The notes beneath the pieces are model-generated. The model saw only the letters and a program-made list of their open reading frames with translations, did no database searches and was not told where the DNA came from. The position numbers were made by a program, and so were the translations under genes. 64,000 nucleotides of DNA, from assembly GCA_053919585.1 (NCBI GenBank), contig CM132828.1; one strand, given 5' to 3'. Below are positions 3,105-45,130 of this stretch, one piece after another. The stretch comes from Euprymna scolopes. Lineage: Eukaryota. Numbering within the stretch: the stretch's first letter is position 1; each line of letters starts with the position of its first letter.

Positions 3105-3410
3105 ATTAAATTTAAATGTACAACGTATACTTTTTCAAAAAGGATATTTATCAGAAACCACTTATCAACATGGAATTTAAATGTCAAAAGTATATTTTCC
3201 AAAAGGATATTATTATAAACAACTTGTTAACATGAAATTTAAATGTCAAATTATATTTTTCACAATGATATTATTCAGAAAAAACTTATGAATTAAAATT
3301 TCAAAAGGGTAATTTATCAGAAACAACTTATCTACATGTAATTTAAATATTAAAAGTGTAAATTTAAAAAACAACAACAACTTATCAACATGGAATTTAA
3401 ATCTAAAAGA
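3105..3410. repeat. Diverged ~59-bp AT-rich tandem repeat
   Basis: ACTTATCAACATGGAATTTAAAT-like motif recurs about 5 times. Confidence 0.55.
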
Positions 3411-4449: not shown

Positions 4450-4650
4450 CTTTTCTGCAATGGCACAGATAGTTGCATATAACGTTATCTGTTATAGGAG
4501 GAAATACAGTGAGTTGGTCGCAAAATGGAGAATTAGCTTGGCAAATAGTTTGGCTTTGTCTGTTGCTGATGAGATGATCTTAGATCCATTGCTGCTCAGG
4601 ATATTGTTTGCTATTTGCAAAAACTGGTGGAATCAAGCCGCTGCTCCGCT
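4450..4650 (-). mobile_element. Short internal fragment of the same CR1/L2-group LINE family
   Basis: Minus strand reads FLQIANNIL...ISSATDKAKLFAK and VFPPITDNVICN, matching DEAKLFAKNF...PFPPVTENTLCN at 47520-47670. Confidence 0.6.
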
Positions 4651-5304
4651 ACTTTGGATTTAACGGACAGCATATAACCCTCTTGCATTTTTTATTACTC
4701 TTTTACAGTGGTTTCTGGCTGTCCTGAAAGCAGCTTTAGTCTCAGTACATCTATTACGTTGTTAGCTATGGGAAAAGTGATTATTGTAATGTCCACATGT
4801 TTTCCGAAGTTCATTTTCACAAACACCACATACGCAGATGTGACAGAAAAGAATATAGACCAACAGAAGCAGTTTATTTCAATAAACATAATTTATAGAA
4901 CGAAATAAAAATAAATTGTCATAAATTTAATAATACTTCCTGGATGTTCCCTTTGCTGTTTTTAATGCGAGGACCCATCTAGGCATAGCATTGATCAGTT
5001 GACGAATATTATCTTGAAAATTTTCTTACCATGACATGCAATAATGCTAGAAGTTAATGCTTAAAACATGGTTTCCTTTTTATGAAGATCTCCGTCTAAA
5101 GTCTAAAGGTTATCAATTGGGTTCATATCCGGGTATTAACGTTGCTATGGAAGTTTAATGATCCCATTTTGGCTCAACCCATGTTTTATACAGTAAAGTG
5201 GCAAGGAGATCCGTCTCATAAATATGGAGTTAACTTCGTTCATTTTATCACTTTACAATTTCATATGCAGATTGGTGTGTGTCTGTAGAGGTAATGCACG
5301 TGTT

Positions 5305-5306
<2 letters not shown>

Positions 5307-5347
<41 letters not shown>
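5307..5347. repeat. (GT)n microsatellite
   Basis: Direct reading. Confidence 0.95.
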
Positions 5348-5348
<1 letters not shown>

Positions 5349-5466
5349 GGAAACTTTTGGATGATGTATGTGTGGAATATGAGGTTGTGTGAGCGGGTGT
5401 GTATTTTGCAGAAAGTGACTGTGAAGCACCTGCCCTGTTGAGGCTTCCACAATGTAGAATAGCGGC

Positions 5467-5857
5467 TTAGTGTAGACTAGTTTGACGACTTTTTAGTGTC
5501 TTTGTCTTGTACTCGCACCCGTTGTTCTGTGCTAATATCAGGGAGGTCCTTAGTGGCAACTGTCTCAGGAGTAGGCGCTCCTGAATCTCTTCTTCCTGGA
5601 CATTTTGGTTGACGCATTTAACGAGTAGTTTACTGGCCAATTTCCGATTGAATAGCAGCTTCCTCAACGATGGGATTGCATGGGCTAACAGTGTCGATCA
5701 GAGACACAACAGACTCACGCTTATGTTTCAACCGCTTAGTATAGCTTTCTCATCGTCTCTATGGAGCGTTCGACCATGTCATTCGATTGTGGGCACCTTG
5801 GAGAAGAGTTGATGTGTTCAAAACCCCATGCTTTGGCAAAGTCTTTGAAATGCTGTG
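5467..5857 (-). pseudogene. Gypsy integrase C-terminal remnant (left flank of satellite)
   Basis: SSQHFKDFAKAWGFEHINSSPRCPQSNDMVERSIETMRK resembles the rve motif F..WG..H.TSSP.YPQSNG.VER. Confidence 0.88.
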
Positions 5858-8800
5858 AGCTAAACTGTGGGCAATTGTCATTGATAAGTCTTTCACCAAA
5901 GATTTGTTTGATACAATCGATGACTTTCCTTACTAGAGAGTCCCCATAGTTTGTGGATGAAATGTTACTTTGAATAGTAATCAATGATAGGGAGGTAATT
6001 CATACCGTCAAGTCGAAAATGTCGGTAGCTAAACTGTGGGCAATTGTCATTGATAAGTCTTTCACCAAAGATTTGTTTGATACAATCGATGACTTTCCTT
6101 ACTAGAGAGTCCCCATAGTTTGTGGATGAAATGTTACTTTGAATAGTAATCAATGATAGGGAGGTAATTCATACCGTCAAGTCGAAAATGTCGGTAGCTA
6201 AACTGTGGGCAATTGTCATTGATAAGTCTTTCACCAAAGATTTGTTTGATACAATCGATGACTTTCCTTACTAGAGAGTCCCCATAGTTTGTGGATGAAA
6301 TGTTACTTTGAATAGTAATCAATGATAGGGAGGTAATTCATACCGTCAAGTCGAAAATGTCGGTAGCTAAACTGTGGGCAATTGTCATTGATAAGTCTTT
6401 CACCAAAGATTTGTTTGATACAATCGATGACTTTCCTTACTAGAGAGTCCCCATAGTTTGTGGATGAAATGTTACTTTGAATAGTAATCAATGATAGGGA
6501 GGTAATTCATACCGTCAAGTCGAAAATGTCGGTAGCTAAACTGTGGGCAATTGTCATTGATAAGTCTTTCACCAAAGATTTGTTTGATACAATCGATGAC
6601 TTTCCTTACTAGAGAGTCCCCATAGTTTGTGGATGAAATGTTACTTTGAATAGTAATCAATGATAGGGAGGTAATTCATACCGTCAAGTCGAAAATGTCG
6701 GTAGCTAAACTGTGGGCAATTGTCATTGATAAGTCTTTCACCAAAGATTTGTTTGATACAATCGATGACTTTCCTTACTAGAGAGTCCCCATAGTTTGTG
6801 GATGAAATGTTACTTTGAATAGTAATCAATGATAGGGAGGTAATTCATACCGTCAAGTCGAAAATGTCGGTAGCTAAACTGTGGGCAATTGTCATTGATA
6901 AGTCTTTCACCAAAGATTTGTTTGATACAATCGATGACTTTCCTTACTAGAGAGTCCCCCATAGTTTGTGGATGAAATGTTACTTTGAATAGTAATCAAT
7001 GATAGGGAGGTAATTCATACCGTCAAGTCGAAAATGTCGGTAGCTAAACTGTGGGCAATTGTCATTGATAAGTCTTTCACCAAAGATTTGTTTGATACAA
7101 TCGATGACTTTCCTTACTAGAGAGTCCCCATAGTTTGTGGATGAAATGTTACTTTGAATAGTAATCAATGATAGGGAGGTAATTCATACCGTCAAGTCGA
7201 AAATGTCGGTAGCTAAACTGTGGGCAATTGTCATTGATAAGTCTTTCACCAAAGATTTGTTTGATACAATCGATGACTTTCCTTACTAGAGAGTCCCCAT
7301 AGTTTGTGGATGAAATGTTACTTTGAATAGTAATCAATGATAGGGAGGTAATTCATACCGTCAAGTCGAAAATGTCGGTAGCTAAACTGTGGGCAATTGT
7401 CATTGATAAGTCTTTCACCAAAGATTTGTTTGATACAATCGATGACTTTCCTTACTAGAGTCCCCATAGTTTGTGGATGAAATGTTACTTTGAATAGTAA
7501 TCAATGATAGGGAGGTAATTCATACCGTCAAGTCGAAAATGTCGGTAGCTAAACTGTGGGCAATTGTCATTGATAAGTCTTTCACCAAAGATTTGTTTGA
7601 TACAATCGATGACTTTCCTTACTAGAGAGTCCCCATAGTTTGTGGATGAAATGTTACTTTGAATAGTAATCAATGATAGGGAGGTAATTCATACCGTCAA
7701 GTCGAAAATGTCGGTAGCTAAACTGTGGGCAATTGTCATTGATAAGTCTTTCACCAAAGATTTGTTTGATACAATCGATGACTTTCCTTACTAGAGAGTC
7801 CCCATAGTTTGTGGATGAAATGTTACTTTGAATAGTAATCAATGATAGGGAGGTAATTCATACCGTCAAGTCGAAAATGTCGGTAGCTAAACTGTGGGCA
7901 ATTGTCATTGATAAGTCTTTCACCAAAGATTTGTTTGATACAATCGATGACTTTCCTTACTAGAGAGTCCCCATAGTTTGTGGATGAAATGTTACTTTGA
8001 ATAGTAATCAATGATAGGGAGGTAATTCATACCGTCAAGTCGAAAATGTCGGTAGCTAAACTGTGGGCAATTGTCATTGATAAGTCTTTCACCAAAGATT
8101 TGTTTGATACAATCGATGACTTTCCTTACTAGAGAGTCCCCATAGTTTGTGGATGAAATGTTACTTTGAATAGTAATCAATGATAGGGAGGTAATTCATA
8201 CCGTCAAGTCGAAAATGTCGGTAGCTAAACTGTGGGCAATTGTCATTGATAAGTCTTTCACCAAAGATTTGTTTGATACAATCGATGACTTTCCTTACTA
8301 GAGAGTCCCCATAGTTTGTGGATGAAATGTTACTTTGAATAGTAATCAATGATAGGGAGGTAATTCATACCGTCAAGTCGAAAATGTCGGTAGCTAAACT
8401 GTGGGCAATTGTCATTGATAAGTCTTTCACCAAAGATTTGTTTGATACAATCGATGACTTTCCTTACTAGAGAGTCCCCATAGTTTGTGGATGAAATGTT
8501 ACTTTGAATAGTAATCAATGATAGGGAGGTAATTCATACCGTCAAGTCGAAAATGTCGGTAGCTAAACTGTGGGCAATTGTCATTGATAAGTCTTTCACC
8601 AAAGATTTGTTTGATACAATCGATGACTTTCCTTACTAGAGAGTCCCCATAGTTTGTGGATGAAATGTTACTTTGAATAGTAATCAATGATAGGGAGGTA
8701 ATTCATACCGTCAAGTCGAAAATGTCGGTAGCTAAACTGTGGGCAATTGTCATTGATAAGTCTTTCACCAAAGATTTGTTTGATACAATCGATGACTTTC

Positions 8801-11800
8801 CTTACTAGAGAGTCCCCATAGTTTGTGGATGAAATGTTACTTTGAATAGTAATCAATGATAGGGAGGTAATTCATACCGTCAAGTCGAAAATGTCGGTAG
8901 CTAAACTGTGGGCAATTGTCATTGATAAGTCTTTCACCAAAGATTTGTTTGATACAATCGATGACTTTCCTTGCTAGAGAGTCCCCATAGTTTGTGGATG
9001 AAATGTTACTTTGAATAGTAATCAATGATAGGGAGGTAATTCATACCGTCAAGTCGAAAATGTCGGTAGCTAAACTGTGGGCAATTGTCATTGATAAGTC
9101 TTTCACCAAAGATTTGTTTGATACAATCGATGACTTTCCTTACTAGAGAGTCCCCATAGTTTGTGGATGAAATGTTACTTTGAATAGTAATCAATGATAG
9201 GGAGGTAATTCATACCGTCAAGTCGAAAATGTCGGTAGCTAAACTGTGGGCAATTGTCATTGATAAGTCTTTCACCAAAGATTTGTTTGATACAATCGAT
9301 GACTTTCCTTACTAGAGAGTCCCCATAGTTTGTGGATGAAATGTTACTTTGAATAGTAATCAATGATAGGGAGGTAATTCATACCGTCAAGTCGAAAATG
9401 TCGGTAGCTAAACTGTGGGCAATTGTCATTGATAAGTCTTTCACCAAAGATTTGTTTGATACAATCGATGACTTTCCTTACTAGAGAGTCCCCATAGTTT
9501 GTGGATGAAATGTTACTTTGAATAGTAATCAATGATAGGGAGGTAATTCATACCGTCAAGTCGAAAATGTCGGTAGCTAAACTGTGGGCAATTGTCATTG
9601 ATAAGTCTTTCACCAAAGATTTGTTTGATACAATCGATGACTTTCCTTACTAGAGAGTCCCCATAGTTTGTGGATGAAATGTTACTTTGAATAGTAATCA
9701 ATGATAGGGAGGTAATTCATACCGTCAAGTCGAAAATGTCGGTAGCTAAACTGTGGGCAATTGTCATTGATAAGTCTTTCACCAAAGATTTGTTTGATAC
9801 AATCGATGACTTTCCTTACTAGAGAGTCCCCATAGTTTGTGGATGAAATGTTACTTTGAATAGTAATCAATGATAGGGAGGTAATTCATACCGTCAAGTC
9901 GAAAATGTCGGTAGCTAAACTGTGGGCAATTGTCATTGATAAGTCTTTCACCAAAGATTTGTTTGATACAATCGATGACTTTCCTTACTAGAGAGTCCCC
10001 ATAGTTTGTGGATGAAATGTTACTTTGAATAGTAATCAATGATAGGGAGGTAATTCATACCGTCAAGTCGAAAATGTCGGTAGCTAAACTGTGGGCAATT
10101 GTCATTGATAAGTCTTTCACCAAAGATTTGTTTGATACAATCGATGACTTTCCTTGCTAGAGAGTCCCCATAGTTTGTGGATGAAATGTTACTTTGAATA
10201 GTAATCAATGATAGGGAGGTAATTCATACCGTCAAGTCGAAAATGTCGGTAGCTAAACTGTGGGCAATTGTCATTGATAAGTCTTTCACCAAAGATTTGT
10301 TTGATACAATCGATGACTTTCCTTACTAGAGAGTCCCCATAGTTTGTGGATGAAATGTTACTTTGAATAGTAATCAATGATAGGGAGGTAATTCATACCG
10401 TCAAGTCGAAAATGTCGGTAGCTAAACTGTGGGCAATTGTCATTGATAAGTCTTTCACCAAAGATTTGTTTGATACAATCGATGACTTTCCTTACTAGAG
10501 AGTCCCCATAGTTTGTGGATGAAATGTTACTTTGAATAGTAATCAATGATAGGGAGGTAATTCATACCGTCAAGTCGAAAATGTCGGTAGCTAAACTGTG
10601 GGCAATTGTCATTGATAAGTCTTTCACCAAAGATTTGTTTGATACAATCGATGACTTTCCTTGCTAGAGAGTCCCCATAGTTTGTGGATGAAATGTTACT
10701 TTGAATAGTAATCAATGATAGGGAGGTAATTCATACCGTCAAGTCGAAAATGTCGGTAGCTAAACTGTGGGCAATTGTCATTGATAAGTCTTTCACCAAA
10801 GATTTGTTTGATACAATCGATGACTTTCCTTGCTAGAGAGTCCCCATAGTTTGTGGATGAAATGTTACTTTGAATAGTAATCAATGATAGGGAGGTAATT
10901 CATACCGTCAAGTCGAAAATGTCGGTAGCTAAACTGTGGGCAATTGTCATTGATAAGTCTTTCACCAAAGATTTGTTTGATACAATCGATGACTTTCCTT
11001 ACTAGAGTCCCCATAGTTTGTGGATGAAATGTTACTTTGAATAGTAATCAATGATAGGGAGGTAATTCATACCGTCAAGTCGAAAATGTCGGTAGCTAAA
11101 CTGTGGGCAATTGTCATTGATAAGTCTTTCACCAAAGATTTGTTTGATACAATCGATGACTTTCCTTACTAGAGAGTCCCCATAGTTTGTGGATGAAATG
11201 TTACTTTGAATAGTAATCAATGATAGGGAGGTAATTCATACCGTCAAGTCGAAAATGTCGGTAGCTAAACTGTGGGCAATTGTCATTGATAAGTCTTTCA
11301 CCAAAGATTTGTTTGATACAATCGATGACTTTCCTTACTAGAGAGTCCCCATAGTTTGTGGATGAAATGTTACTTTGAATAGTAATCAATGATAGGGAGG
11401 TAATTCATACCGTCAAGTCGAAAATGTCGGTAGCTAAACTGTGGGCAATTGTCATTGATAAGTCTTTCACCAAAGATTTGTTTGATACAATCGATGACTT
11501 TCCTTACTAGAGAGTCCCCATAGTTTGTGGATGAAATGTTACTTTGAATAGTAATCAATGATAGGGAGGTAATTCATACCGTCAAGTCGAAAATGTCGGT
11601 AGCTAAACTGTGGGCAATTGTCATTGATAAGTCTTTCACCAAAGATTTGTTTGATACAATCGATGACTTTCCTTACTAGAGAGTCCCCATAGTTTGTGGA
11701 TGAAATGTTACTTTGAATAGTAATCAATGATAGGGAGGTAATTCATACCGTCAAGTCGAAAATGTCGGTAGCTAAACTGTGGGCAATTGTCATTGATAAG

Positions 11801-14800
11801 TCTTTCACCAAAGATTTGTTTGATACAATCGATGACTTTCCTTGCTAGAGAGTCCCCATAGTTTGTGGATGAAATGTTACTTTGAATAGTAATCAATGAT
11901 AGGGAGGTAATTCATACCGTCAAGTCGAAAATGTCGGTAGCTAAACTGTGGGCAATTGTCATTGATAAGTCTTTCACCAAAGATTTGTTTGATACAATCG
12001 ATGACTTTCCTTACTAGAGTCCCCATAGTTTGTGGATGAAATGTTACTTTGAATAGTAATCAATGATAGGGAGGTAATTCATACCGTCAAGTCGAAAATG
12101 TCGGTAGCTAAACTGTGGGCAATTGTCATTGATAAGTCTTTCACCAAAGATTTGTTTGATACAATCGATGACTTTCCTTACTAGAGAGTCCCCATAGTTT
12201 GTGGATGAAATGTTACTTTGAATAGTAATCAATGATAGGGAGGTAATTCATACCGTCAAGTCGAAAATGTCGGTAGCTAAACTGTGGGCAATTGTCATTG
12301 ATAAGTCTTTCACCAAAGATTTGTTTGATACAATCGATGACTTTCCTTGCTAGAGAGTCCCCATAGTTTGTGGATGAAATGTTACTTTGAATAGTAATCA
12401 ATGATAGGGAGGTAATTCATACCGTCAAGTCGAAAATGTCGGTAGCTAAACTGTGGGCAATTGTCATTGATAAGTCTTTCACCAAAGATTTGTTTGATAC
12501 AATCGATGACTTTCCTTACTAGAGTCCCCATAGTTTGTGGATGAAATGTTACTTTGAATAGTAATCAATGATAGGGAGGTAATTCATACCGTCAAGTCGA
12601 AAATGTCGGTAGCTAAACTGTGGGCAATTGTCATTGATAAGTCTTTCACCAAAGATTTGTTTGATACAATCGATGACTTTCCTTACTAGAGTCCCCATAG
12701 TTTGTGGATGAAATGTTACTTTGAATAGTAATCAATGATAGGGAGGTAATTCATACCGTCAAGTCGAAAATGTCGGTAGCTAAACTGTGGGCAATTGTCA
12801 TTGATAAGTCTTTCACCAAAGATTTGTTTGATACAATCGATGACTTTCCTTACTAGAGTCCCCATAGTTTGTGGATGAAATGTTACTTTGAATAGTAATC
12901 AATGATAGGGAGGTAATTCATACCGTCAAGTCGAAAATGTCGGTAGCTAAACTGTGGGCAATTGTCATTGATAAGTCTTTCACCAAAGATTTGTTTGATA
13001 CAATCGATGACTTTCCTTACTAGAGAGTCCCCATAGTTTGTGGATGAAATGTTACTTTGAATAGTAATCAATGATAGGGAGGTAATTCATACCGTCAAGT
13101 CGAAAATGTCGGTAGCTAAACTGTGGGCAATTGTCATTGATAAGTCTTTCACCAAAGATTTGTTTGATACAATCGATGACTTTCCTTGCTAGAGAGTCCC
13201 CATAGTTTGTGGATGAAATGTTACTTTGAATAGTAATCAATGATAGGGAGGTAATTCATACCGTCAAGTCGAAAATGTCGGTAGCTAAACTGTGGGCAAT
13301 TGTCATTGATAAGTCTTTCACCAAAGATTTGTTTGATACAATCGATGACTTTCCTTACTAGAGAGTCCCCATAGTTTGTGGATGAAATGTTACTTTGAAT
13401 AGTAATCAATGATAGGGATGTAATTCATACCGTCAAGTCGAAAATGTCGGTAGCTAAACTGTGGGCAATTGTCATTGATAAGTCTTTCACCAAAGATTTG
13501 TTTGATACAATCGATGACTTTCCTTACTAGAGAGTCCCCATAGTTTGTGGATGAAATGTTACTTTGAATAGTAATCAATGATAGGGAGGTAATTCATACC
13601 GTCAAGTCGAAAATGTCGGTAGCTAAACTGTGGGCAATTGTCATTGATAAGTCTTTCACCAAAGATTTGTTTGATACAATCGATGACTTTCCTTACTAGA
13701 GAGTCCCCATAGTTTGTGGATGAAATGTTACTTTGAATAGTAATCAATGATAGGGAGGTAATTCATACCGTCAAGTCGAAAATGTCGGTAGCTAAACTGT
13801 GGGCAATTGTCATTGATAAGTCTTTCACCAAAGATTTGTTTGATACAATCGATGACTTTCCTTACTAGAGAGTCCCCATAGTTTGTGGATGAAATGTTAC
13901 TTTGAATAGTAATCAATGATAGGGAGGTAATTCATACCGTCAAGTCGAAAATGTCGGTAGCTAAACTGTGGGCAATTGTCATTGATAAGTCTTTCACCAA
14001 AGATTTGTTTGATACAATCGATGACTTTCCTTACTAGAGAGTCCCCATAGTTTGTGGATGAAATGTTACTTTGAATAGTAATCAATGATAGGGAGGTAAT
14101 TCATACCGTCAAGTCGAAAATGTCGGTAGCTAAACTGTGGGCAATTGTCATTGATAAGTCTTTCACCAAAGATTTGTTTGATACAATCGATGACTTTCCT
14201 TACTAGAGAGTCCCCATAGTTTGTGGATGAAATGTTACTTTGAATAGTAATCAATGATAGGGAGGTAATTCATACCGTCAAGTCGAAAATGTCGGTAGCT
14301 AAACTGTGGGCAATTGTCATTGATAAGTCTTTCACCAAAGATTTGTTTGATACAATCGATGACTTTCCTTACTAGAGAGTCCCCATAGTTTGTGGATGAA
14401 ATGTTACTTTGAATAGTAATCAATGATAGGGAGGTAATTCATACCGTCAAGTCGAAAATGTCGGTAGCTAAACTGTGGGCAATTGTCATTGATAAGTCTT
14501 TCACCAAAGATTTGTTTGATACAATCGATGACTTTCCTTACTAGAGAGTCCCCATAGTTTGTGGATGAAATGTTACTTTGAATAGTAATCAATGATAGGG
14601 AGGTAATTCATACCGTCAAGTCGAAAATGTCGGTAGCTAAACTGTGGGCAATTGTCATTGATAAGTCTTTCACCAAAGATTTGTTTGATACAATCGATGA
14701 CTTTCCTTACTAGAGAGTCCCCATAGTTTGTGGATGAAATGTTACTTTGAATAGTAATCAATGATAGGGAGGTAATTCATACCGTCAAGTCGAAAATGTC

Positions 14801-17800
14801 GGTAGCTAAACTGTGGGCAATTGTCATTGATAAGTCTTTCACCAAAGATTTGTTTGATACAATCGATGACTTTCCTTACTAGAGAGTCCCCATAGTTTGT
14901 GGATGAAATGTTACTTTGAATAGTAATCAATGATAGGGAGGTAATTCATACCGTCAAGTCGAAAATGTCGGTAGCTAAACTGTGGGCAATTGTCATTGAT
15001 AAGTCTTTCACCAAAGATTTGTTTGATACAATCGATGACTTTCCTTGCTAGAGAGTCCCCATAGTTTGTGGATGAAATGTTACTTTGAATAGTAATCAAT
15101 GATAGGGAGGTAATTCATACCGTCAAGTCGAAAATGTCGGTAGCTAAACTGTGGGCAATTGTCATTGATAAGTCTTTCACCAAAGATTTGTTTGATACAA
15201 TCGATGACTTTCCTTACTAGAGAGTCCCCATAGTTTGTGGATGAAATGTTACTTTGAATAGTAATCAATGATAGGGAGGTAATTCATACCGTCAAGTCGA
15301 AAATGTCGGTAGCTAAACTGTGGGCAATTGTCATTGATAAGTCTTTCACCAAAGATTTGTTTGATACAATCGATGACTTTCCTTACTAGAGAGTCCCCAT
15401 AGTTTGTGGATGAAATGTTACTTTGAATAGTAATCAATGATAGGGAGGTAATTCATACCGTCAAGTCGAAAATGTCGGTAGCTAAACTGTGGGCAATTGT
15501 CATTGATAAGTCTTTCACCAAAGATTTGTTTGATACAATCGATGACTTTCCTTACTAGAGAGTCCCCATAGTTTGTGGATGAAATGTTACTTTGAATAGT
15601 AATCAATGATAGGGAGGTAATTCATACCGTCAAGTCGAAAATGTCGGTAGCTAAACTGTGGGCAATTGTCATTGATAAGTCTTTCACCAAAGATTTGTTT
15701 GATACAATCGATGACTTTCCTTACTAGAGAGTCCCCATAGTTTGTGGATGAAATGTTACTTTGAATAGTAATCAATGATAGGGAGGTAATTCATACCGTC
15801 AAGTCGAAAATGTCGGTAGCTAAACTGTGGGCAATTGTCATTGATAAGTCTTTCACCAAAGATTTGTTTGATACAATCGATGACTTTCCTTACTAGAGAG
15901 TCCCCATAGTTTGTGGATGAAATGTTACTTTGAATAGTAATCAATGATAGGGAGGTAATTCATACCGTCAAGTCGAAAATGTCGGTAGCTAAACTGTGGG
16001 CAATTGTCATTGATAAGTCTTTCACCAAAGATTTGTTTGATACAATCGATGACTTTCCTTGCTAGAGAGTCCCCATAGTTTGTGGATGAAATGTTACTTT
16101 GAATAGTAATCAATGATAGGGAGGTAATTCATACCGTCAAGTCGAAAATGTCGGTAGCTAAACTGTGGGCAATTGTCATTGATAAGTCTTTCACCAAAGA
16201 TTTGTTTGATACAATCGATGACTTTCCTTACTAGAGAGTCCCCATAGTTTGTGGATGAAATGTTACTTTGAATAGTAATCAATGATAGGGAGGTAATTCA
16301 TACCGTCAAGTCGAAAATGTCGGTAGCTAAACTGTGGGCAATTGTCATTGATAAGTCTTTCACCAAAGATTTGTTTGATACAATCGATGACTTTCCTTAC
16401 TAGAGAGTCCCCATAGTTTGTGGATGAAATGTTACTTTGAATAGTAATCAATGATAGGGAGGTAATTCATACCGTCAAGTCGAAAATGTCGGTAGCTAAA
16501 CTGTGGGCAATTGTCATTGATAAGTCTTTCACCAAAGATTTGTTTGATACAATCGATGACTTTCCTTACTAGAGAGTCCCCATAGTTTGTGGATGAAATG
16601 TTACTTTGAATAGTAATCAATGATAGGGAGGTAATTCATACCGTCAAGTCGAAAATGTCGGTAGCTAAACTGTGGGCAATTGTCATTGATAAGTCTTTCA
16701 CCAAAGATTTGTTTGATACAATCGATGACTTTCCTTACTAGAGAGTCCCCATAGTTTGTGGATGAAATGTTACTTTGAATAGTAATCAATGATAGGGAGG
16801 TAATTCATACCGTCAAGTCGAAAATGTCGGTAGCTAAACTGTGGGCAATTGTCATTGATAAGTCTTTCACCAAAGATTTGTTTGATACAATCGATGACTT
16901 TCCTTACTAGAGAGTCCCCATAGTTTGTGGATGAAATGTTACTTTGAATAGTAATCAATGATAGGGAGGTAATTCATACCGTCAAGTCGAAAATGTCGGT
17001 AGCTAAACTGTGGGCAATTGTCATTGATAAGTCTTTCACCAAAGATTTGTTTGATACAATCGATGACTTTCCTTACTAGAGTCCCCATAGTTTGTGGATG
17101 AAATGTTACTTTGAATAGTAATCAATGATAGGGAGGTAATTCATACCGTCAAGTCGAAAATGTCGGTAGCTAAACTGTGGGCAATTGTCATTGATAAGTC
17201 TTTCACCAAAGATTTGTTTGATACAATCGATGACTTTCCTTACTAGAGAGTCCCCATAGTTTGTGGATGAAATGTTACTTTGAATAGTAATCAATGATAG
17301 GGAGGTAATTCATACCGTCAAGTCGAAAATGTCGGTAGCTAAACTGTGGGCAATTGTCATTGATAAGTCTTTCACCAAAGATTTGGTGGTACAATCGATG
17401 ACTTTCCTTACTAGAGTCCCCATAGTTTGTGGATGAAATGTTACTTTGAATAGTAATCAATGATAGGGAGGTAATTCATACCGTCAAGTCGAAAATGTCG
17501 GTAGCTAAACTGTGGGCAATTGTCATTGATAAGTCTTTCACCAAAGATTTGTTTGATACAATCGATGACTTTCCTTACTAGAGAGTCCCCATAGTTTGTG
17601 GATGAAATGTTACTTTGAATAGTAATCAATGATAGGGAGGTAATTCATACCGTCAAGTCGAAAATGTCGGTAGCTAAACTGTGGGCAATTGTCATTGATA
17701 AGTCTTTCACCAAAGATTTGTTTGATACAATCGATGACTTTCCTTACTAGAGAGTCCCCATAGTTTGTGGATGAAATGTTACTTTGAATAGTAATCAATG

Positions 17801-29800: not shown

Positions 29801-32800
29801 TCAAGTCGAAAATGTCGGTAGCTAAACTGTGGGCAATTGTCATTGATAAGTCTTTCACCAAAGATTTGTTTGATACAATCGATGACTTTCCTTGCTAGAG
29901 AGTCCCCATAGTTTGTGGATGAAATGTTACTTTGAATAGTAATCAATGATAGGGAGGTAATTCATACCGTCAAGTCGAAAATGTCGGTAGCTAAACTGTG
30001 GGCAATTGTCATTGATAAGTCTTTCACCAAAGATTTGTTTGATACAATCGATGACTTTCCTTACTAGAGAGTCCCCATATTTTGTGGATGAAATGTTACT
30101 TTGAATAGTAATCAATGATAGGGAGGTAATTCATACCGTCAAGTCGAAAATGTCGGTAGCTAAACTGTGGGCAATTGTCATTGATAAGTCTTTCACCAAA
30201 GATTTGTTTGATACAATCGATGACTTTCCTTGCTAGAGAGTCCCCATAGTTTGTGGATGAAATGTTACTTTGAATAGTAATCAATGATAGGGAGGTAATT
30301 CATACCGTCAAGTCGAAAATGTCGGTAGCTAAACTGTGGGCAATTGTCATTGATAAGTCTTTCACCAAAGATTTGTTTGATACAATCGATGACTTTCCTT
30401 ACTAGAGAGTCCCCATAGTTTGTGGATGAAATGTTACTTTGAATAGTAATCAATGATAGGGAGGTAATTCATACCGTCAAGTCGAAAATGTCGGTAGCTA
30501 AACTGTGGGCAATTGTCATTGATAAGTCTTTCACCAAAGATTTGTTTGATACAATCGATGACTTTCCTTGCTAGAGAGTCCCCATAGTTTGTGGATGAAA
30601 TGTTACTTTGAATAGTAATCAATGATAGGGAGGTAATTCATACCGTCAAGTCGAAAATGTCGGTAGCTAAACTGTGGGCAATTGTCATTGATAAGTCTTT
30701 CACCAAAGATTTGTTTGATACAATCGATGACTTTCCTTGCTAGAGAGTCCCCATAGTTTGTGGATGAAATGTTACTTTGAATAGTAATCAATGATAGGGA
30801 GGTAATTCATACCGTCAAGTCGAAAATGTCGGTAGCTAAACTGTGGGCAATTGTCATTGATAAGTCTTTCACCAAAGATTTGTTTGATACAATCGATGAC
30901 TTTCCTTACTAGAGTCCCCATAGTTTGTGGATGAAATGTTACTTTGAATAGTAATCAATGATAGGGAGGTAATTCATACCGTCAAGTCGAAAATGCTGGT
31001 AGCTAAACTGTGGGCAATTGTCATTGATAAGTCTTTCACCAAAGATTTGTTTGATACAATCGATGACTTTCCTTACTAGAGTCCCCATAGTTTGTGGATG
31101 AAATGTTACTTTGAATAGTAATCAATGATAGGGAGGTAATTCATACCGTCAAGTCGAAAATGTCGGTAGCTAAACTGTGGGCAATTGTCATTGATAAGTC
31201 TTTCACCAAAGATTTGTTTGATACAATCGATGACTTTCCTTACTAGAGAGTCCCCATAGTTTGTGGATGAAATGTTACTTTGAATAGTAATCAATGATAG
31301 GGAGGTAATTCATACCGTCAAGTCGAAAATGTCGGTAGCTAAACTGTGGGCAATTGTCATTGATAAGTCTTTCACCAAAGATTTGTTTGATACAATCGAT
31401 GACTTTCCTTACTAGAGAGTCCCCATAGTTTGTGGATGAAATGTTACTTTGAATAGTAATCAATGATAGGGAGGTAATTCATACCGTCAAGTCGAAAATG
31501 TCGGTAGCTAAACTGTGGGCAATTGTCATTGATAAGTCTTTCACCAAAGATTTGTTTGATACAATCGATGACTTTCCTTACTAGAGAGTCCCCATAGTTT
31601 GTGGATGAAATGTTACTTTGAATAGTAATCAATGATAGGGAGGTAATTCATACCGTCAAGTCGAAAATGTCGGTAGCTAAACTGTGGGCAATTGTCATTG
31701 ATAAGTCTTTCACCAAAGATTTGTTTGATACAATCGATGACTTTCCTTACTAGAGAGTCCCCATAGTTTGTGGATGAAATGTTACTTTGAATAGTAATCA
31801 ATGATAGGGAGGTAATTCATACCGTCAAGTCGAAAATGTCGGTAGCTAAACTGTGGGCAATTGTCATTGATAAGTCTTTCACCAAAGATTTGTTTGATAC
31901 AATCGATGACTTTCCTTACTAGAGAGTCCCCATAGTTTGTGGATGAAATGTTACTTTGAATAGTAATCAATGATAGGGATGTAATTCATACCGTCAAGTC
32001 GAAAATGTCGGTAGCTAAACTGTGGGCAATTGTCATTGATAAGTCTTTCACCAAAGATTTGTTTGATACAATCGATGACTTTCCTTACTAGAGTCCCCAT
32101 AGTTTGTGGATGAAATGTTACTTTGAATAGTAATCAATGATAGGGAGGTAATTCATACCGTCAAGTCGAAAATGTCGGTAGCTAAACTGTGGGCAATTGT
32201 CATTGATAAGTCTTTCACCAAAGATTTGTTTGATACAATCGATGACTTTCCTTACTAGAGAGTCCCCATAGTTTGTGGATGAAATGTTACTTTGAATAGT
32301 AATCAATGATAGGGAGGTAATTCATACCGTCAAGTCGAAAATGTCGGTAGCTAAACTGTGGGCAATTGTCATTGATAAGTCTTTCACCAAAGATTTGTTT
32401 GATACAATCGATGACTTTCCTTACTAGAGAGTCCCCATAGTTTGTGGATGAAATGTTACTTTGAATAGTAATCAATGATAGGGAGGTAATTCATACCGTC
32501 AAGTCGAAAATGTCGGTAGCTAAACTGTGGGCAATTGTCATTGATAAGTCTTTCACCAAAGATTTGTTTGATACAATCGATGACTTTCCTTACTAGAGAG
32601 TCCCCATAGTTTGTGGATGAAATGTTACTTTGAATAGTAATCAATGATAGGGAGGTAATTCATACCGTCAAGTCGAAAATGTCGGTAGCTAAACTGTGGG
32701 CAATTGTCATTGATAAGTCTTTCACCAAAGATTTGTTTGATACAATCGATGACTTTCCTTACTAGAGAGTCCCCATAGTTTGTGGATGAAATGTTACTTT

Positions 32801-35800
32801 GAATAGTAATCAATGATAGGGAGGTAATTCATACCGTCAAGTCGAAAATGTCGGTAGCTAAACTGTGGGCAATTGTCATTGATAAGTCTTTCACCAAAGA
32901 TTTGTTTGATACAATCGATGACTTTCCTTACTAGAGAGTCCCCATAGTTTGTGGATGAAATGTTACTTTGAATAGTAATCAATGATAGGGAGGTAATTCA
33001 TACCGTCAAGTCGAAAATGTCGGTAGCTAAACTGTGGGCAATTGTCATTGATAAGTCTTTCACCAAAGATTTGTTTGATACAATCGATGACTTTCCTTAC
33101 TAGAGAGTCCCCATAGTTTGTGGATGAAAGGTTACTTTGAATAGTAATCAATGATAGAGAGGTAATTCATACCGTCAAGTCGAAAATGTCGGTAGCTAAA
33201 CTGTGGGCAATTGTCATTGATAAGTCTTTCACCAAAGATTTGTTTGATACAATCGATGACTTTCCTTACTAGAGAGTCCCCATAGTTTGTGGATGAAATG
33301 TTACTTTGAATAGTAATCAATGATAGGGAGGTAATTCATACCGTCAAGTCGAAAATGTCGGTAGCTAAACTGTGGGCAATTGTCATTGATAAGTCTTTCA
33401 CCAAAGATTTGTTTGATACAATCGATGACTTTCCTTACTAGAGAGTCCCCATAGTTTGTGGATGAAATGTTACTTTGAATAGTAATCAATGATAGGGAGG
33501 TAATTCATACCGTCAAGTCGAAAATGTCGGTAGCTAAACTGTGGGCAATTGTCATTGATAAGTCTTTCACCAAAGATTTGTTTGATACAATCGATGACTT
33601 TCCTTACTAGAGAGTCCCCATAGTTTGTGGATGAAATGTGACTTTGAATAGTAATCAATGATAGGGAGGTAATTCATACCGTCAAGTCGAAAATGTCGGT
33701 AGCTAAACTGTGGGCAATTGTCATTGATAAGTCTTTCACCAAAGATTTGTTTGATACAATCGATGACTTTCCTTGCTAGAGAGTCCCCATAGTTTGTGGA
33801 TGAAATGTTACTTTGAATAGTAATCAATGATAGGGAGGTAATTCATACCGTCAAGTCGAAAATGTCGGTAGCTAAACTGTGGGCAATTGTCATTGATAAG
33901 TCTTTCACCAAAGATTTGTTTGATACAATCGATGACTTTCCTTACTAGAGAGTCCCCATAGTTTGTGGATGAAATGTTACTTTGAATAGTAATCAATGAT
34001 AGGGAGGTAATTCATACCGTCAAGTCGAAAATGTCGGTAGCTAAACTGTGGGCAATTGTCATTGATAAGTCTTTCACCAAAGATTTGTTTGATACAATCG
34101 ATGACTTTCCTTGCTAGAGAGTCCCCATAGTTTGTGGATGAAATGTTACTTTGAATAGTAATCAATGATAGGGAGGTAATTCATACCGTCAAGTCGAAAA
34201 TGTCGGTAGCTAAACTGTGGGCAATTGTCATTGATAAGTCTTTCACCAAAGATTTGTTTGATACAATCGATGACTTTCCTTACTAGAGAGTCCCCATAGT
34301 TTGTGGATGAAATGTTACTTTGAATAGTAATCAATGATAGGGAGGTAATTCATACCGTCAAGTCGAAAATGTCGGTAGCTAAACTGTGGGCAATTGTCAT
34401 TGATAAGTCTTTCACCAAAGATTTGTTTGATACAATCGATGACTTTCCTTGCTAGAGAGTCCCCATAGTTTGTGGATGAAATGTTACTTTGAATAGTAAT
34501 CAATGATAGGGAGGTAATTCATACCGTCAAGTCGAAAATGTCGGTAGCTAAACTGTGGGCAATTGTCATTGATAAGTCTTTCACCAAAGATTTGTTTGAT
34601 ACAATCGATGACTTTCCTTACTAGAGAGTCCCCATAGTTTGTGGATGAAATGTTACTTTGAATAGTAATCAATGATAGGGAGGTAATTCATACCGTCAAG
34701 TCGAAAATGTCGGTAGCTAAACTGTGGGCAATTGTCATTGATAAGTCTTTCACCAAAGATTTGTTTGATACAATCGATGACTTTCCTTGCTAGAGAGTCC
34801 CCATAGTTTGTGGATGAAATGTTACTTTGAATAGTAATCAATGATAGGGAGGTAATTCATACCGTCAAGTCGAAAATGTCGGTAGCTAAACTGTGGGCAA
34901 TTGTCATTGATAAGTCTTTCACCAAAGATTTGTTTGATACAATCGATGACTTTCCTTACTAGAGAGTCCCCATATTTTGTGGATGAAATGTTACTTTGAA
35001 TAGTAATCAATGATAGGGAGGTAATTCATACCGTCAAGTCGAAAATGTCGGTAGCTAAACTGTGGGCAATTGTCATTGATAAGTCTTTCACCAAAGATTT
35101 GTTTGATACAATCGATGACTTTCCTTGCTAGAGAGTCCCCATAGTTTGTGGATGAAATGTTACTTTGAATAGTAATCAATGATAGGGAGGTAATTCATAC
35201 CGTCAAGTCGAAAATGTCGGTAGCTAAACTGTGGGCAATTGTCATTGATAAGTCTTTCACCAAAGATTTGTTTGATACAATCGATGACTTTCCTTACTAG
35301 AGAGTCCCCATAGTTTGTGGATGAAATGTTACTTTGAATAGTAATCAATGATAGGGAGGTAATTCATACCGTCAAGTCGAAAATGTCGGTAGCTAAACTG
35401 TGGGCAATTGTCATTGATAAGTCTTTCACCAAAGATTTGTTTGATACAATCGATGACTTTCCTTGCTAGAGAGTCCCCATAGTTTGTGGATGAAATGTTA
35501 CTTTGAATAGTAATCAATGATAGGGAGGTAATTCATACCGTCAAGTCGAAAATGTCGGTAGCTAAACTGTGGGCAATTGTCATTGATAAGTCTTTCACCA
35601 AAGATTTGTTTGATACAATCGATGACTTTCCTTGCTAGAGAGTCCCCATAGTTTGTGGATGAAATGTTACTTTGAATAGTAATCAATGATAGGGAGGTAA
35701 TTCATACCGTCAAGTCGAAAATGTCGGTAGCTAAACTGTGGGCAATTGTCATTGATAAGTCTTTCACCAAAGATTTGTTTGATACAATCGATGACTTTCC

Positions 35801-38800
35801 TTACTAGAGTCCCCATAGTTTGTGGATGAAATGTTACTTTGAATAGTAATCAATGATAGGGAGGTAATTCATACCGTCAAGTCGAAAATGCTGGTAGCTA
35901 AACTGTGGGCAATTGTCATTGATAAGTTTTTCACCAAAGATTTGTTTGATACAATCGATGACTTTCCTTACTAGAGTCCCCATAGTTTGTGGATGAAATG
36001 TTACTTTGAATAGTAATCAATGATAGGGAGGTAATTCATACCGTCAAGTCGAAAATGTCGGTAGCTAAACTGTGGGCAATTGTCATTGATAAGTCTTTCA
36101 CCAAAGATTTGTTTGATACAATCGATGACTTTCCTTACTAGAGAGTCCCCATAGTTTGTGGATGAAATGTTACTTTGAATAGTAATCAATGATAGGGAGG
36201 TAATTCATACCGTCAAGTCGAAAATGTCGGTAGCTAAACTGTGGGCAATTGTCATTGATAAGTCTTTCACCAAAGATTTGTTTGATACAATCGATGACTT
36301 TCCTTACTAGAGAGTCCCCATAGTTTGTGGATGAAATGTTACTTTGAATAGTAATCAATGATAGGGAGGTAATTCATACCGTCAAGTCGAAAATGTCGGT
36401 AGCTAAACTGTGGGCAATTGTCATTGATAAGTCTTTCACCAAAGATTTGTTTGATACAATCGATGACTTTCCTTACTAGAGAGTCCCCATAGTTTGTGGA
36501 TGAAATGTTACTTTGAATAGTAATCAATGATAGGGAGGTAATTCATACCGTCAAGTCGAAAATGTCGGTAGCTAAACTGTGGGCAATTGTCATTGATAAG
36601 TCTTTCACCAAAGATTTGTTTGATACAATCGATGACTTTCCTTACTAGAGAGTCCCCATAGTTTGTGGATGAAATGTTACTTTGAATAGTAATCAATGAT
36701 AGGGAGGTAATTCATACCGTCAAGTCGAAAATGTCGGTAGCTAAACTGTGGGCAATTGTCATTGATAAGTCTTTCACCAAAGATTTGTTTGATACAATCG
36801 ATGACTTTCCTTACTAGAGAGTCCCCATAGTTTGTGGATGAAATGTTACTTTGAATAGTAATCAATGATAGGGATGTAATTCATACCGTCAAGTCGAAAA
36901 TGTCGGTAGCTAAACTGTGGGCAATTGTCATTGATAAGTCTTTCACCAAAGATTTGTTTGATACAATCGATGACTTTCCTTACTAGAGTCCCCATAGTTT
37001 GTGGATGAAATGTTACTTTGAATAGTAATCAATGATAGGGAGGTAATTCATACCGTCAAGTCGAAAATGTCGGTAGCTAAACTGTGGGCAATTGTCATTG
37101 ATAAGTCTTTCACCAAAGATTTGTTTGATACAATCGATGACTTTCCTTACTAGAGAGTCCCCATAGTTTGTGGATGAAATGTTACTTTGAATAGTAATCA
37201 ATGATAGGGAGGTAATTCATACCGTCAAGTCGAAAATGTCGGTAGCTAAACTGTGGGCAATTGTCATTGATAAGTCTTTCACCAAAGATTTGTTTGATAC
37301 AATCGATGACTTTCCTTACTAGAGAGTCCCCATAGTTTGTGGATGAAATGTTACTTTGAATAGTAATCAATGATAGGGAGGTAATTCATACCGTCAAGTC
37401 GAAAATGTCGGTAGCTAAACTGTGGGCAATTGTCATTGATAAGTCTTTCACCAAAGATTTGTTTGATACAATCGATGACTTTCCTTACTAGAGAGTCCCC
37501 ATAGTTTGTGGATGAAATGTTACTTTGAATAGTAATCAATGATAGGGAGGTAATTCATACCGTCAAGTCGAAAATGTCGGTAGCTAAACTGTGGGCAATT
37601 GTCATTGATAAGTCTTTCACCAAAGATTTGTTTGATACAATCGATGACTTTCCTTACTAGAGAGTCCCCATAGTTTGTGGATGAAATGTTACTTTGAATA
37701 GTAATCAATGATAGGGAGGTAATTCATACCGTCAAGTCGAAAATGTCGGTAGCTAAACTGTGGGCAATTGTCATTGATAAGTCTTTCACCAAAGATTTGT
37801 TTGATACAATCGATGACTTTCCTTACTAGAGAGTCCCCATAGTTTGTGGATGAAATGTTACTTTGAATAGTAATCAATGATAGGGATGTAATTCATACCG
37901 TCAAGTCGAAAATGTCGGTAGCTAAACTGTGGGCAATTGTCATTGATAAGTCTTTCACCAAAGATTTGTTTGATACAATCGATGACTTTCCTTACTAGAG
38001 TCCCCATAGTTTGTGGATGAAATGTTACTTTGAATAGTAATCAATGATAGGGAGGTAATTCATACCGTCAAGTCGAAAATGTCGGTAGCTAAACTGTGGG
38101 CAATTGTCATTGATAAGTCTTTCACCAAAGATTTGTTTGATACAATCGATGACTTTCCTTACTAGAGAGTCCCCATAGTTTGTGGATGAAATGTTACTTT
38201 GAATAGTAATCAATGATAGGGAGGTAATTCATACCGTCAAGTCGAAAATGTCGGTAGCTAAACTGTGGGCAATTGTCATTGATAAGTCTTTCACCAAAGA
38301 TTTGTTTGATACAATCGATGACTTTCCTTACTAGAGAGTCCCCATAGTTTGTGGATGAAATGTTACTTTGAATAGTAATCAATGATAGGGAGGTAATTCA
38401 TACCGTCAAGTCGAAAATGTCGGTAGCTAAACTGTGGGCAATTGTCATTGATAAGTCTTTCACCAAAGATTTGTTTGATACAATCGATGACTTTCCTTAC
38501 TAGAGTCCCCATAGTTTGTGGATGAAATGTTACTTTGAATAGTAATCAATGATAGGGAGGTAATTCATACCGTCAAGTCGAAAATGTCGGTAGCTAAACT
38601 GTGGGCAATTGTCATTGATAAGTCTTTCACCAAAGATTTGTTTGATACAATCGATGACTTTCCTTACTAGAGAGTCCCCATAGTTTGTGGATGAAATGTT
38701 ACTTTGAATAGTAATCAATGATAGGGAGGTAATTCATACCGTCAAGTCGAAAATGTCGGTAGCTAAACTGTGGGCAATTGTCATTGATAAGTCTTTCACC

Positions 38801-41300
38801 AAAGATTTGTTTGATACAATCGATGACTTTCCTTACTAGAGAGTCCCCATAGTTTGTGGATGAAATGTTACTTTGAATAGTAATCAATGATAGGGAGGTA
38901 ATTCATACCGTCAAGTCGAAAATGTCGGTAGCTAAACTGTGGGCAATTGTCATTGATAAGTCTTTCACCAAAGATTTGTTTGATACAATCGATGACTTTC
39001 CTTACTAGAGAGTCCCCATAGTTTGTGGATGAAAGGTTACTTTGAATAGTAATCAATGATAGAGAGGTAATTCATACCGTCAAGTCGAAAATGTCGGTAG
39101 CTAAACTGTGGGCAATTGTCATTGATAAGTCTTTCACCAAAGATTTGTTTGATACAATCGATGACTTTCCTTACTAGAGAGTCCCCATAGTTTGTGGATG
39201 AAATGTTACTTTGAATAGTAATCAATGATAGGGAGGTAATTCATACCGTCAAGTCGAAAATGTCGGTAGCTAAACTGTGGGCAATTGTCATTGATAAGTC
39301 TTTCACCAAAGATTTGTTTGATACAATCGATGACTTTCCTTACTAGAGAGTCCCCATAGTTTGTGGATGAAATGTTACTTTGAATAGTAATCAATGATAG
39401 GGAGGTAATTCATACCGTCAAGTCGAAAATGTCGGTAGCTAAACTGTGGGCAATTGTCATTGATAAGTCTTTCACCAAAGATTTGTTTGATACAATCGAT
39501 GACTTTCCTTACTAGAGAGTCCCCATAGTTTGTGGATGAAATGTGACTTTGAATAGTAATCAATGATAGGGAGGTAATTCATACCGTCAAGTCGAAAATG
39601 TCGGTAGCTAAACTGTGGGCAATTGTCATTGATAAGTCTTTCACCAAAGATTTGTTTGATACAATCGATGACTTTCCTTGCTAGAGAGTCCCCATAGTTT
39701 GTGGATGAAATGTTACTTTGAATAGTAATCAATGATAGGGAGGTAATTCATACCGTCAAGTCGAAAATGTCGGTAGCTAAACTGTGGGCAATTGTCATTG
39801 ATAAGTCTTTCACCAAAGATTTGTTTGATACAATCGATGACTTTCCTTACTAGAGAGTCCCCATAGTTTGTGGATGAAATGTTACTTTGAATAGTAATCA
39901 ATGATAGGGAGGTAATTCATACCGTCAAGTCGAAAATGTCGGTAGCTAAACTGTGGGCAATTGTCATTGATAAGTCTTTCACCAAAGATTTGTTTGATAC
40001 AATCGATGACTTTCCTTACTAGAGAGTCCCCATAGTTTGTGGATGAAATGTTACCTTTAATAGTAATCAATGATAGGGAGGTAATTCATACCGTCAAGTC
40101 GAAAATGTCGGTAGCTAAACTGTGGGCAATTGTCATTGATAAGTCTTTCACCAAAGATTTGTTTGATACAATCGATGACTTTCCTTACTAGAGAGTCTCC
40201 ATAGTTTGTGGATGAAATGTTACTTTGAATAGTAATCAATGATAGGGAGGTAATTCATACCGTCAAGTCGAAAATGTCGGTAGCTAAACTGTGGGCAATT
40301 GTCATTGATAAGTCTTTCACCAAAGATTTGTTTGATACAATCGATGACTTTCCTTACTAGAGAGTCCCCATAGTTTGTGGATGAAAGGTTACTTTGAATA
40401 GTAATCAATGATAGGGAGGTAATTCATACCGTCAAGTCGAAAATGTCGGTAGCTAAACTGTGGGCAATTGTCATTGATAAGTCTTTCACCAAAGATTTGT
40501 TTGATACAATCGATGGCTTTCCTTACTAGAGAGTCCCCATAGTTTGTGGATGAAATGTTACTTTGAATAGTAATCAATGATAGGGAGGTAATTCATACCG
40601 TCAAGTCGAAAATGTCGGTAGCTAAACTGTGGGCAATTGTCATTGATAAGTCTTTCACCAAAGATTTGTTTGATACAATCGATGACTTTCCTTACTAGAG
40701 AGTCCCCATAGTTTGTGGATGAAATGTTACTTTGAATAGTAATCAATGATAGGGAGGTAATTCATACCGTCAAGTCGAAAATGTCGGTAGCTAAACTGTG
40801 GGCAATTGTCATTGATAAGTCTTTCACCAAAGATTTGTTTGATACAATCGATGACTTTCCTTACTAGAGAGTCCCCATAGTTTGTGGATGAAATGTTACT
40901 TTGAATAGTAATCAATGATAGGGAGGTAATTCATACCGTCAAGTCGAAAATGTCGGTAGCTAAACTGTGGGCAATTGTCATTGATAAGTCTTTCACCAAA
41001 GATTTGTTTGATACAATCGATGACTTTCCTTACTAGAGAGTCCCCATAGTTTGTGGATGAAATGTTACTTTGAATAGTAATCAATGATAGGGAGGTAATT
41101 CATACCGTCAAGTCGAAAATGTCGGTAGCTAAACTGTGGGCAATTGTCATTGATAAGTCTTTCACCAAAGATTTGTTTGATACAATCGATGACTTTCCTT
41201 ACTAGAGAGTCCCCATAGTTTGTGGATGAAAGGTTACTTTGAATAGTAATCAATGATAGGGAGGTAATTCATACCGTCAAGTCGAAAATGTCGGTAGCTA
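5858..41300. repeat. Integrase-derived satellite: 210 tandem copies of a 169-bp unit
   Basis: Unit spacing from the ORF track gives 183x169 + 25x167 + 1x170 + 1x166 = 35438 bp, plus a terminal AGCTA. Most units differ from consensus by 0-2 positions. Unit encodes broken ATDIF/LDGMNYLPIIDYYSK/KVIDCIKQIFG/INDNCPQF. Confidence 0.98.
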
Positions 41301-44442: not shown

Positions 44443-44457
44443 GTGTGTGTGTGCGTG

Positions 44458-44501
<44 letters not shown>

Positions 44502-44599: not shown

Positions 44600-44601
<2 letters not shown>

Positions 44602-45127: not shown

Positions 45128-45130
<3 letters not shown>

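Follow-up and report, generated by a model that had tools for sequence, protein, structure and literature searches.

Analysis of a 64,000-nucleotide stretch of the Euprymna scolopes genome (contig CM132828.1 of assembly GCA_053919585.1; hereafter, the window) revealed a satellite that very likely arose where it now lies. The locus is best read as a single-locus array of a 169-bp integrase fragment, placed between the halves of its dead parent element; the array likely started by a microhomology-mediated duplication, likely grew by repeated unequal exchange and is likely neutral. TRF reported a period of 169, 210.0 copies and 99% matches over positions 5858-41300 (35.4 kb), and the array could be split into 210 units of 166 to 170 bp that fall into 16 distinct types. 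The first unit represents the commonest type, with 138 of the 210 units identical to it. The locus thus has the long head-to-tail layout and fixed monomer of satellite DNA (210 x 169 bp). A protein-coding repeat was ruled out, as the longest stop-free frames span 51 and 91 codons and none exceeds 91 codons anywhere in the array. Hairpin-driven instability was also rejected, the fold of the unit (z -1.38) being matched by 18 of 200 shuffles.

Table 1. Features of the array locus and its surroundings (positions in the window)
Feature	Position	Strand	Remarks
Duplicated block	1832..56028	.	zinc-finger remnant, Gypsy remnant, zinc-finger gene
Left flank	5330..5857	-	decayed integrase remainder: Glu motif and C-terminal part
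Tandem array	5858..41300	.	210 units of ~169 bp and a 5-bp terminal partial unit
Left microhomology arm	5858..5862	+	AGCTA
Unit 1	5858..6026	-	both Asp motifs of the integrase core
Units 137-160	28806..32855	.	first copy of 24-unit block
Units 166-189	33701..37750	.	second copy of 24-unit block
Right microhomology arm	41296..41300	+	AGCTA
Right flank	41301..42100	-	integrase N-terminal part and linker
RNase H (42195-42560) and reverse-transcriptase remnants	42195..43400	-	same element
LTR-like remnant	44172..44400	-	matches three dispersed copies at their far end and the C9 copy at both of its ends
C2H2 zinc-finger ORF	52744..53499	+	251 aa; 11 kb from the array

The initial annotation held that a collinear integrase runs from the right flank through one unit into the left flank, and both the translations and the dispersed relatives described below bear this out. 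When natural stretches of flank and adjoining unit (left flank with the first unit, last unit with the right flank) were translated on the minus strand, WQIVATDIF was found at the right edge and DNCPQFSSQHFKDFAKAWGF at the left edge. The Pfam rve model matched the left flank plus unit with an E value of 0.0055, below the curated cut-off, and RT_RNaseH_2 matched the right flank (E 6.6e-8). The paralog L004 likewise matched rve below the curated cut-off (E 8.9e-5) and matched four retroviral integrase sequences of solved structure (best E 5.4e-8); aligned to one of these, it shows that the second Asp motif lies within the unit and that the Glu motif belongs to the left flank. The host remnant therefore has a DDE integrase core (rve), and the pol order of RT, RNase H and integrase is kept on the minus strand (RT-like, 43380-42560; RNase H, 42560-42195; integrase, 41760-5330). 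Two of 880 candidates passed, one of them named K02A2.6-like with RT, RH and rve domains. The host is probably a Ty3/Gypsy-type element, a label taken from the domain set and order and from the link of K02A2.6-like proteins to Gypsy.

On the left, homology to dispersed family members stops near a GT microsatellite. The right flank contains an older internal duplication with a spacing of 370 bp (41436-41652 and 41806-42021), which is also present in paralog L002 and absent from paralog L001. Searching the left flank and 30 kb upstream gave no second LTR to pair with the LTR-like remnant, and in the C9 copy the two ends have only 34 bp in common, at 85% identity.

Within the assembly, the array is confined to a single locus. 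Exact junction 30-mers occurred 207 times in the 5.9-Gb assembly and 23-mers marking a locus-private deletion 209 times, the numbers expected from the array after two variant units and one variant unit, respectively, while neither marker had a reverse-strand match in the whole assembly. Among the matches listed, the first 100 for each marker all fall inside the array. The genome-wide check suggested in the initial annotation thus came out in favor of one locus, all junction and marker k-mers being accounted for by the array, and secondary insertion of a widespread satellite was ruled out, as no junction lies outside the array in the assembly. The 39 other unit matches are dispersed and 68-89% identical. 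Each of the 10 relatives that were fetched holds a single unit, whose match directly adjoins, in collinear order, the matches to the right and left flanks, and the monomer is thus part of a dispersed transposable element with non-tandem copies, as in other TE-derived satellites. The parental halves flanking the array and the paralogs holding a single unit agree with the earlier proposal that it was born in place.

The array lies in a duplicated block with paralogs at C46:186.79 Mb and C46:190.71 Mb and an older one at C27:113.04 Mb (81-89% identity). All three hold one unit each, so that the state before expansion is still visible. Unit 1 is interrupted by a stop and by two 1-bp frameshifts and lacks 15 bp. 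The stop and one of the frameshifts also occur in the two close paralogs, L001 and L002, and are thus older than the locus; the element was dead before amplification, as had been proposed. The 15-bp in-frame deletion is private to the array locus and, together with a 1-bp insertion, shortened the segment from ~183 to 169 bp relative to L001, and L002 carries a larger deletion at the same place. The deletion lies where the initial annotation had noted the loss of an HGIP motif; the loss itself stands, whereas the wording "HGIP" does not, as the family reads differently at this site. Against L001 and L002 there are 4 substitutions per unit and 2-6% divergence along the block, compared with a pairwise substitution of 0.29% between units, and the expansion is much younger than the element, as claimed; this near-identity also reflects homogenization and hence records the most recent turnover, which may postdate the first duplication.

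Both breakpoints coincide with the exact 5-bp match AGCTA, embedded in an imperfect 11-of-15 match, and L001 and L002, with their single units, carry both arms; in the paralog examined for this, matches of at least 5 bp occur in 0.7% of position pairs. As in microhomology-mediated tandem duplication (MTD), short identical arms surround the 1x segment and the array closes with one extra arm, here the 5-bp partial unit. The unit length of 169 bp is set by the positions of the arms and the private deletion. The interior of the array preserves a record of growth. The 24-unit block recurs at offset 29, its two copies having 11 variant units in common and one private difference, whereas 300 shuffles gave no more than 4 shared units; a further block repeats at offset 35 with 6 variant units in common. 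The paralog-type base was found at unit position 75 in 27 units and at position 106 in 4 units including the last, but never at both in one unit, with 179 units having neither. With the paralog state included, all four combinations exist, and recombination, conversion or repeat mutation is therefore needed.

At least seven other paralog-specific expansions, with periods of 24-141 bp, were found in the 260 kb examined. The edges of the seven other arrays are too diverged for terminal-arm lengths to be called. Given so many local expansions, it looks incidental that the array derives from an integrase and has a 169-bp unit, the former also because the array encodes nothing. A broader reading, which we regard as rather unlikely, is that the duplicated block acts as a nursery of satellites, in which arbitrary single-copy pieces (24, 37, 42, 48, 61, 141 and 169 bp) expand in a given paralog and stay at one or a few copies in its sisters, and that two already diverged templates exchanged sequence to seed the 169-bp array, whose units keep L001 or L002 bases at two sites. 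If this were true and the array segregated in the species, it would constitute a natural experiment in satellite birth with readable ancestral state, breakpoints and growth steps, and comparison of carriers with non-carriers would test whether a newborn satellite silences its neighbors or yields small RNAs against the parent family.

The 5-bp match by itself fits slippage, end-joining, unequal exchange and circle excision alike. We nevertheless consider it improbable that a small circle carrying the segment was cut out at the AGCTA arms, multiplied by rolling-circle replication and returned to its own locus by homologous recombination, with block duplications added by later exchange. The same arms would give the same junction and a diversity of 0.29% fits a burst; yet a burst from one template predicts identical units with private changes, whereas two variants occur in 27 and 26 units scattered array-wide, paralog-type bases remain at two sites, blocks are duplicated and no second array exists elsewhere in the assembly.

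Evidence from sequencing runs came as contigs of four runs. In run X3, a 199-base contig (169+30) spans the unit junction with no differences at a depth of 231.6, which speaks against a pure artifact. The X3 flank contigs had depths of 3.4-14.2, and the resulting junction-to-flank ratio of 16-69, below 210, is only a range and not a copy number, as flank contigs may merge paralogs. The read-depth check advised in the initial annotation thus confirmed the junction in X3 but not the exact figure of 210. The junction contig was present in one of the four runs, and X3 may be the source of the assembly itself. X1 and X2 (organism A) and X5 (organism B) yielded no junction contig, but contigs can neither show absence nor separate paralogs, and X1, read to ~71%, has no cover even where paralogs should lie; these runs were not counted as evidence of a presence/absence polymorphism. 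Intermediate 2xN alleles were not observed. X3, labeled "RNA? a guess", was not taken as a sign of expression, since its depth on a high-copy interspersed repeat (901,959) resembles that of the DNA-type run X2 (860,981), with similar flank depth, and no RNA data set was listed as containing the locus. The count of 210 and the duplicated block inside the array may in part be products of the assembler. It is very improbable, however, that the length and internal blocks of a real array are largely due to the assembler or library amplification: the 138 identical units and the X3 ratio below 210 would fit, but a separately assembled public run contains the junction at high depth, the variants recur in order rather than randomly and both flanks join in register with the paralogs.

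Least credible is that the array was kept or enlarged for a function, as a source of heterochromatin or small RNAs against the Gypsy family or zinc-finger genes or as a nascent centromere, a role that the initial annotation had raised and that gained no support: its monomer falls within the 100-200 bp range commonest for centromeric satellites (128 of 263 families, in the accessible text of 10.64898/2026.09.17.752431, which also describes TE-derived arrays able to bind CENH3) and its unit resembles 39 dispersed copies (68-89% identity), but there is one 35-kb array on one contig between zinc-finger genes, rather than large arrays shared among chromosomes, three paralogs manage without it, neighboring expansions have unrelated periods and the unit length follows from the arm positions and the private deletion. 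Neutrality is likely, judging from the lack of coding, the dead substrate and the local background.

In the favored reading of a microhomology-mediated start in place, the element inserted and was then copied with its zinc-finger neighborhood to C27, as the 81-89% identity and the single unit there show. The stop and frameshift in the integrase core were gained before further block duplication on C46, after which the array copy alone, compared with L001, acquired the 15-bp deletion and the 1-bp insertion. Duplication of the segment between the AGCTA arms likely followed, whether through unequal exchange, slippage or microhomology-based repair, and the dimer probably grew over several rounds in which blocks of units were copied and variants were reshuffled.

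A literature search by subject returned nothing on this locus. Satellites from Gypsy integrase regions and coding parts of transposable elements have already been published (PMC5381345, PMC9659126, PMC12628747), and the locus is an unusually complete example of a known route of satellite birth; it represents no new kind and leaves the textbook view unchanged. TE-derived satellites are mostly recognized by homology long after they have spread, which leaves their initial duplication and the sequence of later steps to guesswork. In this case, both halves of the parent element, the breakpoint arms, three paralogs with one unit and a record of growth are all available, and the model of microhomology followed by recombination can be checked directly at the 35-kb scale in an animal.

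As far as the accessible portions of the reports go, the closest counterpart is lamprey LCA-ApaI, likewise a tandem satellite of an animal, with a monomer drawn from a Ty3/Gypsy integrase-coding region; it differs in being 702 bp long, GC-rich, old (70.7% to Gypsy-26_PM-I), present on nearly all chromosomes and of unknown birthplace (PMC5381345), whereas the E. scolopes array has a 169-bp unit, one locus, its parent halves in place and single-unit paralogs. In the available text on MTD, a single-copy segment between short identical arms likewise duplicates and may expand, mostly neutrally, but the cases are mostly 1x to 2x or 3x in microbes and humans, compared with 210 copies and 35 kb here (PMC13167724). 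The maize arrays CRM1TR and CRM4TR share a retrotransposon origin, few loci, local homogenization and growth by conversion; according to the part of the source consulted, they differ in their LTR-UTR origin, monomers on the 0.7-1.4 kb scale and (peri)centromeric position, and no single-step direct repeats were found at their junction (PMC3648361). More generally, the accessible text of four reports attributes 23% of human mini/satellites to transposable elements and indicates that any part, including gag and pol, can serve as substrate; the human cases are mostly of few copies and the Lathyrus cases start from arrays already in the element (PMC3389668, PMC9659126, PMC12628747, PMC7004042), whereas the 10 relatives fetched here each contain one unit.

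Tandem Repeats Finder placed the array at 5858-41300 of the window (G000:C46:168,516,001-168,580,000, in an assembly of 5.9 Gb and 925 contigs), with a period of 169, 210.0 copies and 99% matches. Cutting at a common anchor yielded 210 units of 16 types, 138 of them identical to unit 1, with 209 spacings of 169 bp (182), 167 bp (25), 170 bp (1) and 166 bp (1). The sole N run in the window, at 59093-59359, is distant from the array. The array lies in a duplicated block consisting of a zinc-finger remnant, a Gypsy remnant and a zinc-finger gene. Two paralogs of this block are located on C46, 18 and 22 Mb off, and diverge by 2-6% across 1832-56028, while an older paralog on C27 exhibits 81-89% identity across 2275-46665; each of the three contains a single unit. 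Furthermore, a similarity search with the unit revealed at least 39 dispersed matches (68-89% identity), and all 10 of those fetched consisted of one unit adjoining both flanks. Collectively, these data support the proposal of the initial annotation that the array was born in place. Ten of the 39 listed matches (and at least 10 in all) lie on C46, at 83.5-84.9, 176.8-177.1, 185.0-188.7 and 208.5 Mb, and some of these may represent further, older copies of the block.

Minus-strand translation across the edges recovered the peptides on which the integrase reading had been based, namely ...WQIVATDIF... in the last unit and right flank and ...DNCPQFSSQHFKDFAKAWGF...PQSNDMVERS in the first unit and left flank. 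Pfam rve matched the left flank plus unit below the cut-off (E value of 0.0055), and RNase H was found in the right flank (E value of 6.6e-8). L004, a less decayed paralog, matched solved retroviral integrases (best E value of 5.4e-8), so that the unit includes the second Asp motif, and the Glu motif belongs to the left flank; ATD is presumably the first Asp, judging by Gypsy spacing, a position from which the HMMER alignment deviates by three residues. The named homolog of L004 is a K02A2.6-like polyprotein (2 hits among 880 candidates), and in the alignment of both homologs RT, RNase H and integrase follow in this order across right flank, unit and left flank. Because a single LTR-like remnant was found (44172-44400), the host of the array appears to be a truncated, Gypsy-type remnant.

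The alignment further showed that the unit has two lesions, a stop and a deletion of 1 bp, in common with both C46 paralogs, and that the C27 paralog lacks them. The array locus alone has an insertion of 1 bp and an in-frame deletion of 15 bp, and one C46 paralog (L002) carries its own larger deletion spanning the site of the latter. The shared lesions predate the split from the C46 paralogs, and therefore the integrase was dead before the array locus existed as a separate copy. Death before amplification had previously been argued from lesions common among the units, and the paralog-shared lesions make the stronger case.

Units differ from each other by 0.29% per site and from each C46 paralog by 4 substitutions per unit, with near-flank differences of 5/508, 7/508 and 22/993. 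The block duplications are thus roughly ten times as old as the array's last turnover, in agreement with the recent expansion initially proposed.

Identical 5 bases occur at both breakpoints, inside an 11/15 match; a 5-bp partial unit of the same bases terminates the array, and both arms exist in the paralogs. Among paralog position pairs, at least 5 exact bases were shared by 0.7% and 11/15 by 0.03%, the latter window having been picked after inspection. This anatomy probably reflects microhomology-mediated tandem duplication, as in the excerpt of PMC13167724, by a repair or slippage route that it does not distinguish. Units 137-160 recur as 166-189, with one private difference and 11 variant units in common (maximum of 4 in 300 shuffles). 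A second block, units 150-167, reappears as units 185-202 and has 6 variant units in common. Since multi-unit blocks recur, the array grew in several rounds. At unit position 75, the paralogs' base is retained in 27 units; at position 106, four units, including the last, carry the base of L002 and C27 and the others that of the second C46 paralog, L001. No unit keeps the paralog-type base at both positions. Once the paralog state is included, all four combinations exist, and therefore recombination, conversion or repeat mutation happened. A 370-bp-spaced duplication in the right flank is shared with L002 only. As a lead from the two sites, the array may have been seeded by exchange between two templates.

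Assembly-wide, a unit-junction 30-mer had 207 exact matches and a 23-mer over the locus-private deletion 209, with 0 on the reverse strand in either case; the first 100 listed of each all fall inside the array. As 2 of the 209 junctions have a variant within the 30-mer and 1 of the 210 units within the 23-mer, these totals are those expected of the array itself and leave no room for copies outside it, so that the satellite is a single locus in this assembly.

One of four public runs, X3, contained a 199-base contig extending from 5858 to 6056 over a unit junction, with 0 differences and a depth of 231.6; its flank contigs had depths of 3.4-14.2. This length (169+30) is expected of a collapsed tandem. 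The contig speaks for at least tens of copies in real DNA, and against an array created solely by the assembler. The number 210 is left unconfirmed by X3, because depth is no copy number, the flank contigs may merge paralogs and X3 is possibly the assembly's own source. The other three runs had no junction contig, though contigs cannot prove absence. A very high-copy interspersed repeat lies at 4530-4800, and each of the four runs gave it a summed contig depth of 0.5-2 million.

The 169-bp array is the largest expansion in approximately 260 kb (window, neighbours and three paralogs), where at least 7 others, with units of 42, 24, 61, 141, 48, 69 and 37 bp, are confined to one copy of the block.

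Other tandem repeats in the window, neighbouring stretches (L035, L036) and block paralogs (A and B, on C46; C27)
Unit	Copies	Location	Remarks
42 bp	137	G000:C46:186,798,707-186,804,456 (L024-L025), paralog A	97% matches, 5.7 kb
24 bp	31	L023, paralog A	1 copy in comparison paralog
61 bp	60	L032, paralog B	
141 bp	22	L036:4937-8282, ~5 kb beyond window end	two sub-arrays
69 bp	~24	window 1-196 and end of L035	spans window start
48 bp	11	window 51240-51765	AT-rich minisatellite; single copy in paralog A
100 bp		window 48545-48936	AT-rich minisatellite
51 bp		window 60707-61350	AT-rich minisatellite
37 bp	36	C27 stretch	

With the 42-bp array, the duplicated block has a second young expansion that formed in place; paralog B has 4-5 copies of the 42-bp unit, and the window lacks the segment. 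The 141-bp unit is present once in paralog A, paralog B and the window, and the 69-bp array was not found in the fetched paralog stretches. In-place expansion of any DNA between short matches is routine in the examined region. The derivation of the 169-bp array from an integrase, its fit to the two Asp motifs and its nucleosome-like length are therefore most likely incidental. As a single 35-kb array on one contig among zinc-finger genes, it shows no sign of a centromere. The centromeric role and the small RNAs raised by the initial annotation remain speculative. A C2H2 zinc-finger cluster lies on either side of the array and in every paralog, with tandem genes and remnants of 84-bp period at 52744-54489 and 1832-2467 and in L035 and L036. 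LINE-like reverse-transcriptase/endonuclease fragments, whose family we assign presumptively, were translated from 758-1949, 46722-48000, 56798-57184 and 63313-63813.

Our literature search found no account of the array locus. In the excerpts consulted, LTR, gag or pol parts (review PMC12628747), or indeed any TE part (PMC9659126), are described as satellite sources, TEs gave rise to 23% of the mini/satellites in humans (PMC3389668; see also PMC7004042 on TE-derived mini/satellites), and a centromere atlas describes arrays of TE sub-sequences, some of them CENH3-binding (10.64898/2026.09.17.752431). Maize CRM arrays grew through local conversion (excerpt of PMC3648361), and the lamprey LCA-ApaI tandem satellite of 702 bp derives from a Ty3/Gypsy integrase region (excerpt of PMC5381345). 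Satellite birth from a TE integrase is thus already known, and the present array is unusually well documented through its own paralogs.
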